Origin: Escherichia coli
Lineage (GTDB): Bacteria; Pseudomonadota; Gammaproteobacteria; Enterobacterales; Enterobacteriaceae
Direction: 5' to 3' (one strand)
DNA length: 64,000 bases
Assembly: GCF_003991155.1 (NCBI RefSeq)
Contig: NZ_CP031293.1
The position numbers and the translations under genes were made by a program. Of the stretch, positions 37,645 to 40,375 are shown in pieces; position 1 is the first letter of the stretch; every line of letters starts with the position of its first letter. The notes beneath the pieces are model-generated. The model did not search any database. It was not told the DNA's origin and worked only from the letters and a program-made list of their open reading frames with translations.

Positions 37645-40375
37645 TCACACCCCATATCCCATCATCTTCAGCAGTTTCTGCGCGTGTTGTACCGCGGCCT
37701 GACGGTGGGCGACACCGAGTTTTTGGTACAGATTGCGGATATGCGTTTTGATGGTGGTTGCCGCCACTTCCAGCTCGCCTGCAATTTGCTCGTTGCTGTA
37801 ACCGGAGTAAATCAGCCCCAGGACCTGCCATTCACGTTGGGTCAGCGGGCTGGTGCGGATCAGTTCTGGCACTTCCGGATGATTTAGCAGACGTTCAACG
37901 AAATTCTCATCGAAATGGGCGAATTTATGCCGATGATGTTGATTGATTTCTCGCAGAATACGCTGCGCACGATGCTGTTCCAGTTCCGGCAGCGTATTAA
38001 GCTGAATCAACTGGCGCAGTTGTTGCGCCATCGCTTCGCCTTCAATCACAAAATGGCTGATAAATCCGGTGCGATTCGCCAGTTTTAATGCGTCCAGCAA
38101 CACGCGCTGAGCGTCACTTTTACGTCCGGCCTGCCAGTACAGTTGATTAAGCAGCAACAGGTTACGGTTGAGATCGCTCATCAACCGCAGACTGCGGGCG
38201 TTTTCATTGAGTTCTTCGAGAACAATTTCTGCCGGTTCAAACTCGCCCAGCAAGATTTGTGCACGGGCAATGTTGCGCCATTGACCTTGCAGGAAGTGGT
38301 TGTTCGCAAACTCCGGTTTAGCCGTATGACGCAACCAGTTGGCAGCGGCGGCTTTATCGCCGGTCATTTGCCAGTAAATCACCCGGACTTTGTTGGCGTT
38401 AGAGATCCAGTCGCTGTGATATTTGCCATTCCCCAGCAGGTTTTCCAGACGGTTAAGCTGGCTACGGGCGTTATCTAAATCACCACGGGCCAGCGAGCAT
38501 TGAATCAACATTGCCAGGCACTGAAGCTGTTGCTGTGGCTGATAAGACGACAAGACTTCAATCCCGCTACGCGCCGACGCTTCGGCTTCATCCAGCCGCG
38601 CCCAGGCCCATAACAGCTGCGCACGAATGCGCACCAGAAACTCATGCATTGGCAGCTGTTCCAGATGCTGCTCGTTGATCAGCTGGAACGCTTTTTCCTG
38701 CGTTTCCCACGCGGTTTGCAGGAACCCTTGGGCAAACAGAATTTCACTTTGCTGGATTAAACTCCATAAGGCGTAGTGCCAGACATCGTGCTGGCGCGCC
38801 ATCTGTTCGGTTTGCTGCATTAGCGCCAGTGAGCGGGTCAATTCGCCTTTGCAGTGCAATACTTCACCCAGCACTGAGGTTGCTACAATGCGGCTATAGA
38901 ACCAGCCCGGAGGCAGTTCTTCCAGTGCCAGTTTTGCCAGCCGTTCCGCTTCATCCGGATTACCATCGTTAATCGCAACCTGGGCGCGCAGAGCGTTAAA
39001 TTCTGCGTGCATGGTGCCTTCTCTGATGTCCTTGATTTCATGTTCAGCACGGGCCAGCAGGGTGTTAACTTCGCCGTAGCGATGTTGGCTTTGCATCAGC
39101 CACGCCTGCAATAACACCAACTGCGGATTTTCCAGCAAACTGTCCCACGGCAGGGCCTTAAGCGACTCTTCCAGCAGCGACAGTTCGCTATGGTTGAACA
39201 GACTCCAGGCGTGATTAAGCAGAATATCGCGCAGCATCAGCGCATCGCCTGCCGCCAGCGCATGATGAATCGCTTCGCTGGGAAATCCCTGGGCCATCCA
39301 GCTTTCTGCGGCGGCACGGTGAATTTCCGGCAGCTCCGCCGCCAGTTCCCACTGGCAGCTCCGCCGCCAGTTCCCACTGGCAGCGCTGACGCAGGAAGTT
39401 ACCAAACAGCGGGTGATAGCAGAACCACTCGCCGGTATCATCCATCCGCTGTAAAAACAGCCCCTGGCGCTCAATCTCTTCGAGGCGCATTTGCCCGTTT
39501 TCTTCGCCGGTCACACGGTTGATGAGTGCATCGTTCATTGAGCGCAAAATGGCGCTTTTCAACAGAAAATGGCGCGTTGCGAGATCGACGTTATCCAAAA
39601 CCTCATCGACCAGATAATCCGAAAGATGGCTGGCATTGATTCCCGCCAGGCGGCGTGCCGACTTATGGGCTGAGTGGGTATTCTGCCGGGCGGAGAGGGC
39701 GATTAGCTGCAGTGCCGTCGCCCAACCGGAAACGTCATCACAAATCCGACTGCTTTCTGCGGCTTCAATCGGCGATGACAGACGGCAATCAAAAAACTGC
39801 TTCGCTTCCTGATGGGTAAATGCCAGTTGCTGACTGCCAATTTCCAGCAGTTGGTCACGAACACGCAGATTGGCAATGCCCAGTTGCGGAAGGTTGCGTG
39901 ACAACACCACCAGGGTGAGATTTTCTGGTTGATGGCGAATAAAGAAGCGCATTGACTCGTGGATCACTGGATTAGTGATCAGATGATAGTCATCGATGAC
40001 CAGATAAAGTGGGCTATGCCATTCCGCCAGCTCAATGAAAAGCTGGGCGAAGAGTGACGTCAGGCTGGCATATTGCCGTTTTTGCGCCATTGTCTCACAT
40101 ATCGCACAGTGACCGTTGGTTGCCTGCTGCACGGCGGCAATGAGATAGCTGGCGAAACGCTCTTGCTGGTTATCACCTTCATCCAGCGAGTACCAGCCGA
40201 TATCGTTTTTGCCTGCCGCCCACTGGGAAATGAGCGTGGTCTTTCCGTAGCCCGCAGGACTTGTGATCAGCGCCAGCCGGAAGTTGTTCGCGCCGGAAAG
40301 TTTAGCCAGCAGGCGCTCACGAACCACGGTATGGTCGAGTCGAACCGGACGACTTAATTTTGACGGAATCAGCAT
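37645..40375 (-). pseudogene. malT: malT (maltose regulon activator) disrupted by a +25-bp tandem duplication frameshift
   Basis: The MalT reading frame ([31 protein letters not shown]...GPTGAGKTT-type ATPase) runs from 40375 but breaks after ...[16 protein letters not shown]; the remaining C-terminal ~520 codons ([15 protein letters not shown] ... LuxR helix-turn-helix) continue in another frame. The track shows this as two overlapping ORFs, 39215-40375 and 37645-39474. Confidence 0.85.
39334..39383. repeat. perfect 25-bp tandem duplication inside malT
   Basis: ctccgccgccagttcccactggcag occurs twice back to back (39334-39358 and 39359-39383); 25 is not a multiple of 3, and QWELAAELP is encoded twice across the junction. 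Confidence 0.9.

Follow-up and report, generated by a model that had tools for sequence, protein, structure and literature searches.

The malT gene in the 64-kb stretch of Escherichia coli DNA analysed here (the window) carries a 25-nt tandem duplication that truncates MalT. Very probably, the duplication is recent and spontaneous and was generated, most likely, by slippage between two GCTGCC motifs, and it is predicted to make the cell Mal-minus, low in LamB and reversibly resistant to phage. Judged from its sequence, the allele is already known: it is the same as the "GAACTGGCGGCGGAGCTGCCAGTGG duplication at 1,022" listed for malT in Table 2 of Chaudhry et al. (2018, PLoS Biol; PMC6112682). 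We tentatively put forward a further reading, possible rather than probable, that the laboratory allele is also a recurrent natural polymorphism, produced by a hairpin-assisted hotspot, and that it works in nature as a de facto reversible switch towards LamB-dependent phages without having been selected as such.

A malT Gene Split Over Two Frames

In the window, malT occupies positions 37645..40375 on the minus strand, as delimited by its ORFs and by the model NF003420, and measures 2,731 nt while the wild-type gene measures 2,706 nt and encodes 901 aa. Within it, both direct reading and Tandem Repeats Finder reveal a perfect tandem array of two 25-nt units and a terminal 6-mer (39329..39384, minus strand). 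According to Tandem Repeats Finder the array is 56 nt long, with period 25, 2.2 copies and 100% identity, that is, 2 x 25 nt plus the 6-nt GGCAGC. On the coding strand it reads GCTGCC-AGTGGGAACTGGCGGCGGA-GCTGCC-AGTGGGAACTGGCGGCGGA-GCTGCC, corresponding to malT nt 992-1047. The initial annotation had put the 25-mer ctccgccgccagttcccactggcag twice in tandem at 39331-39383; the duplication is there and ends exactly at that position, but the two copies lie at 39334-39358 and 39359-39383, so that the start had been set 3 nt before the first copy. There is no other perfect tandem repeat within the 64-kb window. Since about 99.5% of complete E. coli genomes are without it, the 25-nt array is not a matter of chance.

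How does this array divide the protein? Translation shows that native residues 1-341, including the nucleotide-binding domain (Walker A GYGKTT) and most of the winged-helix region, are encoded at 39353..40375 (minus strand), and that a missense tail of 45 codons with a stop codon follows at 39215..39352 (minus strand). The N-terminal ORF has accordingly 386 aa, of which 341 are native, the last of them being ...QWELAAELP, and 45 belong to the tail, in good agreement with the ATPase part of some 380 aa with a short missense tail that had been annotated. Only positions 1-341 of the MalT model are matched by the 386-aa product, with no match to NF003420 in the tail past residue 341, and the native part also matches residues 1-342 of PDB 8bob_C as well as Pfam AAA_16 and WHD_MalT. 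The coding sequence of native residues 342-901, which contains the TPR-like sensor and the LuxR/GerE HTH (37645..39327, minus strand), is out of frame with the start. The annotation had been right that the C-terminal part, LuxR-type domain included, is out of frame, but its length of about 520 aa needs correction, because 560 native residues (342-901) are affected and 530 aa is the length of the ORF that gene callers place within this part, from the ATG at 39237 (Met372). This ORF matches positions 372-903 of the MalT model, and Pfam TPR_MalT and GerE. Likewise, the peptide QWELAAELP, which had been described as duplicated, occurs once in each of the two ORFs and not twice in one polypeptide; translation of the second DNA copy runs in the +1 frame and gives VGTGGGAA....

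The domains of MalT (STAND-type ATPase module, winged helix, TPR-like sensor and GerE/LuxR HTH) are therefore not in one chain but split over two frames, AAA_16 and WHD_MalT being found in the 386-aa product and TPR_MalT and GerE in the 530-aa one. If one 25-nt copy is deleted in silico, an uninterrupted MalT of 901 aa with all these domains in a single chain is obtained, and it scores 1645 bits against NCBIfam NF003420, the MalT equivalog (cutoff 537). The comparison with a duplication-free malT that had been suggested bears this out, as the reconstructed wild type equals the sequence of the relative. As sequenced, the allele is a MalT pseudogene, and PGAP labels the same allele 'frameshifted' in other genomes. 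It is to be noted that the 386-aa ORF and the 530-aa ORF (Met372-901) overlap at the end of the former, and translation of the latter is possible in principle. The Mal-minus phenotype published for the allele argues that the product of this ORF would not be sufficient for MalT function.

The surroundings of the lesion keep the order rtcBA-malT-malPQ. The MalT-dependent malPQ operon (40998..45485, plus strand), consisting of malP (797 aa, 40998-43391) and malQ (694 aa, 43401-45485), is intact, as had been annotated, with zero differences from a Mal-intact relative. The divergent malT-malP control region (40376..40997) is identical to that of the duplication-free relative. lamB and malK are located outside the window.

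The Allele of Leaky Resistance

When the published GAACTGGCGGCGGAGCTGCCAGTGG is reverse-complemented and rotated, the repeat unit of the window is obtained, and malT nt 1022, the published position, is also where the first R1-spacer-R2 block, the duplicated segment, has its end here. Gene, 25-nt unit, position, +25 frameshift and 56-nt array are all the same here as in the K-12 mutants W1, W3 and W9 of Chaudhry et al. (2018) and in E. coli B LR01. The published carriers are laboratory strains of K-12 and E. coli B, whereas here the background is a different, non-laboratory E. coli. In what the K-12 study reports, the duplication was present in 3 of 12 independent mutants, which were Mal-minus and lambda-vir-resistant, and the revertants, arising at 2.3-2.7e-5 per generation, had lost it (PMC6112682). 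The same allele is carried by LR01, a derivative of REL606 (Meyer et al., 2012, as described in Gupta et al., 2022; PMC9259030); in this E. coli B background, too, it confers a Mal-minus, lambda-resistant phenotype and reverts through loss of the duplication (PMC9259030). It has been reported in 38 of 50 coevolved isolates, and it is linked to 'leaky resistance' against phage lambda (PMC6112682; PMC9259030).

The substrate for reversion, 31 nt of perfect homology in the 25-nt register, is identical in the window and in the published allele. The idea that this is a reversible product of short-repeat slippage, already expressed in the initial annotation, is in keeping both with the 901-aa MalT restored by one-copy deletion and with the published revertants (PMC6112682). 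Phenotype and reversion rate of the present isolate should thus be those given in the literature for the same allele. A literature search returned no report of the 25-bp malT duplication in natural isolates, although this is not proof of absence. An in-vitro evolution study of ST38, in which malT was often mutated, was also considered; its supplements yielded no 25-bp malT duplication, and the one allele seen to recur is a point mutation, E854K (PMC11096173).

Recent in the Clone, Recurrent in the Species

Against strain 2016C-3878, two differences are counted in the whole 64-kb window, namely the 25 nt and one SNP. Comparison of window positions 14000-64000 with NZ_CP029747.1 gives 0 SNPs besides the 25 nt, and 1 SNP lies in window positions 1-14098. 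At least 25 genomes are identical across 24 kb save for the 25 nt. By these comparisons, the duplication is recent and private within the clone of this strain. The allele had been called strain-specific, which holds within the clone but not beyond it, as the allele recurs in E. coli on at least 17 malT haplotypes. These haplotypes, at least 7 SNPs apart, were counted among 30 carriers examined, all with an identical array; in the 29 carriers besides this one the identical 56-mer is found at the same position of malT. The nearest neighbours of three other queried carriers are without the duplication. On the evidence of the haplotypes, the duplication is one that arose independently many times across E. 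coli.

How common is it? Among complete E. coli genomes, at least 28 of 5,426 carry the allele (about 0.5%), and its truncated products are found on about 300 public contig records, a count that was not de-duplicated. Eight 386-aa products lead to draft assemblies with the allele. The carriers span clinical, animal, environmental and metagenomic E. coli, and in some metagenome assemblies, namely CECB01005158.1 and two ENA 'METAG' scaffolds, it is this allele that makes up the consensus; ERZ28643354 and ERZ28585125 are among the metagenomes that contain it. A rare rtcR haplotype, 312 bp shorter, is common to four carriers, which come from Japan, New Zealand, France and Czechia. Among the 28 complete-genome carriers, four have genomes of K-12 size and are without host metadata; the one that was checked is K-12-like in its annotation. 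In other natural malT nulls of E. coli and Shigella assemblies the activator is likewise lost through truncation, and truncated MalT proteins of 236-555 aa, many in the same protein clusters, derive mostly from other lesions. Unlike these, the 25-bp duplication is one specific, recurrent and readily reversible lesion.

Probable Slippage Between Two 6-mers

Why should the same 25 nt be duplicated again and again? The wild-type sequence, reconstructed here and equal to that of the duplication-free relative, reads ...C GCTGCC AGTGGGAACTGGCGGCGGA GCTGCC GG..., in which two 6-mers 25 nt apart bound the unit. Slipped-strand mispairing between these GCTGCC 6-mers would most likely have given the 25-nt duplication. 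A quasi-palindrome capable of forming a hairpin, CGCTGCCAGT-GGGA-ACTGGCGGCG, with a 10-bp stem and a 4-nt loop (39363..39386, minus strand), overlaps the first GCTGCC, and the duplicated allele has a second copy of it at about 39339-39359. The hairpin energy is -11.6 kcal/mol (z -2.66) in the wild type and -21 kcal/mol (z -4.8) in the duplicated allele, and the hairpin is the strongest (rank 1) of those at 37 comparable repeat pairs in malT. Probably, this 10-bp-stem hairpin over the first 6-mer aids slippage.

As a control, we took a hypothetical 20-nt duplication between the 10-nt repeats GCGCCATTTT at malT nt 801 and 821. By exact look-up of its predicted 278-aa product, it is about 60-fold rarer (5 vs about 300 contig records, not de-duplicated), where it must be considered that two duplications compared by contig counts may differ in reversion rate. 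When the control was searched as a 520-nt megablast query against complete genomes, 3 records of at least 99% identity were reported outside the top rows; with a 150-nt query, BLAST joined two pieces, so that non-carriers stood at 100%. The mechanism of slippage plus hairpin is probable, with the part of the hairpin resting on correlation.

Slippage hotspots at short direct repeats are well known, for example the CTGG frameshift hotspot of lacI, and models of hairpin-assisted misalignment exist. Like such hotspots, the malT duplication has endpoints at a pre-existing short direct repeat (GCTGCC twice), an adjoining quasi-palindrome and reversal by reverse slippage. Unlike the lacI CTGG hotspot, its 25-nt unit is long, and the parent has one pair of 6-nt repeats and no run of short units.

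What the Lesion Is Expected to Do

With the +25 frameshift, native MalT ends after residue 341, and no single chain holds both the ATPase/oligomerisation module and the sensor and DNA-binding domains. The mal regulon depends on MalT as its obligatory activator, so that the cell is predicted to be Mal-minus with very low LamB and to resist LamB-dependent phages. Given the 31 nt of in-register homology, one copy should be lost often, at about 2.5e-5 per generation by the literature rate for this allele, and the population should keep yielding Mal-plus, phage-sensitive revertants, which is what 'leaky resistance' means. On many wild E. coli, lambda does not plate in any case, owing to O-antigen or capsule. 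For this reason, the label 'lambda-resistant' may be moot for the present isolate, and other phages that depend on LamB would matter instead.

In practice, malT of this genome is to be annotated as a frameshifted pseudogene, and the prediction for the isolate is a maltose-negative, LamB-poor phenotype from which Mal-plus revertants readily arise, which bears on phenotype-based identification, on phage-susceptibility testing and on the use of the strain as a phage host. A mutation studied for more than 10 years in work on lambda-E. coli coevolution and 'leaky resistance' is now met repeatedly beyond the laboratory. It may serve as a natural marker of the influence, if any, that LamB-dependent phages have on E. 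coli populations in vivo, and as a clean test case of what makes a short-repeat duplication hotspot.

Artefact, Culture, Phage or Switch

It is very improbable that the true genome is single-copy and that the second 25-nt copy was made by an assembler or a polisher. A search of complete RefSeq genomes did give no 100% full-length match, so that the genome of the window was not there. However, assemblers do not normally make such duplications because any read is longer than a 25-nt unit, exactly the same change is reported as a Sanger-confirmed spontaneous mutation (PMC6112682), and the identical array recurs in complete genomes, at least 28 of them, each assembled independently, as well as in numerous draft and metagenome assemblies. 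Could a real mutation have arisen or been enriched only after isolation, during subculture or storage, by induction of a LamB-dependent prophage or by adaptation to the medium? This is unlikely, even though the allele arises readily in culture, as its shares among spontaneous K-12 mutants (PMC6112682) and coevolved isolates tell, and in some backgrounds the medium by itself can favour loss of malT, as for Salmonella in Mueller-Hinton medium. An extremely recent event, with at most 1 SNP in 64 kb, would suit such an origin, as would the K-12-sized carriers mentioned above. Against it, the metagenome assemblies named above, for which no colonies are picked, have the allele as their consensus, the four-country carriers of the rtcR haplotype are compatible with inheritance in a circulating clone, and glucose-limited chemostats select gain, not loss, of MalT function. 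We infer phage as the selective agent. It would be rather doubtful that a natural allele is held at low frequency merely by mutation pressure or by selection other than phage, such as the expression cost of the mal regulon or hitch-hiking. On that account, malT loss can pay without phage, as in the Salmonella case; most carriers are singletons with nearest relatives lacking the allele, as expected of short-lived recurrent mutants; and fast reversion would remove the allele quickly. But the allele is the commonest response to LamB-dependent phage in the published experiments, and its consensus status in metagenomes and colony-purified isolates requires a sweep or a bottleneck.

If phage is the agent, were the repeat and the hairpin themselves selected as a reversible OFF/ON switch of LamB, an evolved contingency (phase-variation) locus? 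Fast reversion, the many independent origins, and a site that has the best hairpin among the malT repeat pairs and is struck far oftener than a control with longer repeats would speak for it. It is nevertheless hardly credible, and was rejected on the cross-species test of 6-mer conservation: synonymous sites of the substrate are not conserved, the 6-mers being identical in only 15 of the 63 species that keep the 10-residue peptide, and in the closest relatives (E. albertii, E. whittamii and Escherichia sp. E1V33) GAA replaces GAG, codon 339 in the second 6-mer, which breaks the repeat. Moreover, the Q-W-E-L codons leave little freedom for the hairpin core CAGT-GGGA-ACTG, and prevalence is only about 0.5%. 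As related species do not conserve the repeat, the site has the look of a hotspot that came about fortuitously and not of an evolved switch. The phase-variable SSR loci of Haemophilus, Neisseria and Campylobacter likewise turn a surface-receptor pathway OFF and ON by reversible frameshift and change phage susceptibility. Unlike them, wild-type malT is without a standing repeat tract, and its substrate is not conserved across related species. The passages of Chaudhry et al. (2018; PMC6112682) that were searched gave no forward mutation rate to the duplication; this rate is probably much lower than the reverse rate. The malT allele is one that acts like a weak switch, not a member of the phase-variable SSR class.

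Structure and expected effect of the malT duplication

The gene malT runs from 40375 to 37645 on the minus strand, with rtcBA on one side and the divergent malPQ operon on the other. It contains an array at 39329-39384 with a period of 25, 2.2 copies, 56 nt and 100% matches; there is no other perfect tandem repeat in the 64 kb of the window. On the coding strand (malT nt 992-1047) it reads GCTGCC-AGTGGGAACTGGCGGCGGA-GCTGCC-AGTGGGAACTGGCGGCGGA-GCTGCC, and the two tandem copies of the 25-mer that the initial annotation had placed inside malT are found at 39334-39358 and 39359-39383, so that the gene is 2,731 nt long here versus 2,706 nt normally. 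What is then left of MalT? The N-terminal part ends in a short missense tail, as had been proposed: the product is 386 aa, made of native residues 1-341, which close with QWELAAELP, and 45 missense residues before a stop codon at 39215-39217. Matches to this product are confined to positions 1-341 for the curated MalT equivalog model NF003420 and lie at residues 1-342 for the solved MalT chain 8bob_C. The claim that the C-terminal part is out of frame also holds, because residues 342-901 are in a different frame from the start codon; gene callers give there a 530-aa ORF from Met372 with TPR_MalT and GerE domains. If one 25-nt unit is deleted in silico, an unbroken protein of 901 aa is restored, for which the MalT model gives 1645 bits. 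The neighboring malP and malQ are both complete, as had been noted, and since malPQ, malEFG and malK-lamB-malM are strictly MalT-dependent, malPQ should be silent.

Is such an allele new? Chaudhry et al. (2018; PMC6112682) describe for malT a 'GAACTGGCGGCGGAGCTGCCAGTGG duplication at 1,022' in three of 12 independent lambda-vir-resistant K-12 mutants, and E. coli B yielded this duplication as well. The unit in the window, reverse-complemented and rotated, gives the published one, and the position in malT agrees; therefore, the window allele has already been described. According to the same text, K-12 mutants with the 25-bp duplication are Mal-minus and resistant, the duplication is gone from susceptible lysogens of allele-bearing mutants, and reversion to Mal-plus occurs at 2.3-2.7e-5 per generation, a rate high enough for phage to persist on a 'resistant' culture, which is called 'leaky resistance'. 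LR01, a strain of the coevolution study by Meyer et al. (2012), is defined by the same 25-base duplication as quoted in PMC9259030, and a later study reports it from 38 of 50 genomes, more than any other host mutation. Thus, the observation in the window is confirmed and the interpretation given in the initial annotation is supported, for an allele that is already known. The Mal-minus, lambda-resistant phenotype of MalT loss would be expected in the sequenced isolate too. It is to be noted that lambda fails to plate on many wild strains in any case, so LamB-dependent phages other than lambda would be the relevant ones. What is added here is that the allele appears repeatedly in E. coli from natural and metagenomic sources, and that the hotspot has a plausible structural basis.

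Recency and recurrence of the duplication

In its source lineage the duplication is recent and private. E. coli 2016C-3878 (NZ_CP029747.1) is identical to window 14000-64000 save the 25 nt, and over 24 kb around malT the 25-nt length is all that separates the window from at least 25 complete genomes, whose sources are humans, cattle, chickens, pigs and wastewater. Window 1-14098 differs from 2016C-3878 by a single SNP at position 2625 in the ggt region (T in the window, C in 2016C-3878), which is the sole base difference over 64 kb besides the duplication. A 521-nt query across the site found no complete RefSeq genome, among 5,426, with the duplication on the background of the window. The allele had been called strain-specific; this stands for the source lineage, but the same array occurs on other E. 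coli backgrounds. At least 28 records among the 5,426 genomes match the 521-nt query at full length without gaps, and as they are 98.3-99.4% identical to the window, they sit on backgrounds other than its own. All 20 of these that were fetched have a 2,731-nt malT, called 'frameshifted' by PGAP, in which the 56-mer recurs unchanged and in the same place; no three-copy array occurs among them.

When the fetched genomes were joined with loci from a look-up of the truncated protein and from a metagenome scan, the 30 carriers could be sorted into 17 malT haplotypes, which are separated from one another by at least 7 SNPs and at most 81 differences in 2.7 kb; over 8 kb, the distance between carrier groups is 12 to 257 SNPs. 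Three other carriers queried over 20 kb have dozens of identical or nearly identical nearest genomes, all without the 25 nt. With distinct haplotypes and duplication-free nearest genomes, the simplest reading of the sequences is that the duplication arose independently many times across E. coli. One lineage is over-represented (6 of ~135 genomes versus 22 of ~5,291; rough Fisher p 5e-5), and four of its carriers, from Japan, New Zealand, France and Czechia, have in common an rtcR shorter by 312 bp, so some clonal inheritance within this lineage is possible; at least 24 genomes have the short rtcR without the malT duplication. The short form is 1,287 nt in the fetched loci L010, L013, L014 and L015 (locus 4784-6070) versus 1,599 nt in L005. 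This lineage also includes one carrier metagenome contig.

The allele is not confined to cultured isolates. A scan for the duplication-specific junction found the full array in CECB01005158.1, a 110-kb metagenome contig, and two ENA scaffolds labelled METAG also encode the 386-aa product. Exact look-up of eight 386-aa variants returned ~300 contig records (162, 71, 28, 23, 16, 4, 2 and 1), a count not de-duplicated across sources.

Possible origin of the hotspot

How can the same 25 nt be duplicated so often? Wild-type malT has GCTGCC at either end of the unit, and short direct repeats of this kind are a classical substrate for slipped-strand duplication. The first GCTGCC sits inside a quasi-palindrome, CGCTGCCAGT-GGGA-ACTGGCGGCG, predicted to fold as single-stranded DNA into a hairpin with a 10-bp stem (-11.6 kcal/mol, z -2.66). 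Among the 37 pairs of direct repeats of at least 6 nt with a spacing of 7-60 nt in wild-type malT, the GCTGCC pair ranks first for stability of the intervening structure. Probably, mispairing between the two 6-mers duplicates the unit, and the hairpin overlapping the first 6-mer may assist the slippage. A potential second slippage site serves as control: the 10-nt direct repeat GCGCCATTTT occurs at malT nt 801 and 821, 20 nt apart (malT nt 801-830; window 39546-39575, minus strand), and the predicted 20-nt duplication would be out of frame and is expected to be just as null. In public assemblies the predicted product of this duplication (278 aa, ending ...KSAIFC) has only five contig records versus the ~300 for the 25-nt allele, not de-duplicated. 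Since selection should treat both null alleles alike, this difference points to mutational input behind the excess, consistent with hairpin-assisted slippage. As to what favoured the allele once formed, malT loss can be favoured without phage in some settings and malT gain of function is favoured in others; we infer that it was probably phage, and not medium or drift.

It might be imagined that the hotspot is an evolved switch. This reading was rejected: in a scan of one genome per species with a back-translated 10-residue peptide, 63 species were returned, of which only 15 have identical 6-mers at the two sites, and in the closest relatives, E. albertii, E. whittamii and Escherichia sp. E1V33, GAA in place of GAG breaks the repeat. 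As the 6-mers differ in most species, codon choice in E. coli seems to have produced the hotspot by chance. The scan returned Salmonella enterica only as subspecies arizonae and diarizonae, and neither the main S. enterica nor the main E. coli representative; their malT should match, and scan recall or sequence variation in them could explain the absence.

Other features of the window and carrier loci

A two-gene insert on the plus strand between gntU and yhgN (11730-15028), an interval presumably without genes in K-12, codes for a RecQ-like helicase of 698 aa and a DprA-like protein of 431 aa, named 'RecQ family helicase' and 'DprA' by PGAP; PADLOC matches them to PsyrT (1062 bits) and PsyrA (669 bits), that is, the PsyrTA (RqlHI) toxin-antitoxin/anti-phage pair. 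The glgP-glpD interval carries two genes for PstS-family substrate-binding proteins and a hypothetical gene (26729-29863, plus strand); K-12-like genomes have only a yzgL pseudogene remnant there, and the region is variable among the fetched loci. In the rtcA-malT interval of strain CEC01311 (locus L016, 7725-8479), a GNAT-family acetyltransferase gene and a DUF1778 gene form a TA-like pair absent from the window and the remaining fetched loci. The sole Rfam family match within the window is the RyhB sRNA (RF00057, 83 bits) between yhhX and yhhY (6323-6387, plus strand). Between envZ and pckA (58903-59575, minus strand), a small RelE/ParE-family toxin gene and a NadS-family gene, from the annotation of the identical reference, probably form a type II toxin-antitoxin pair.
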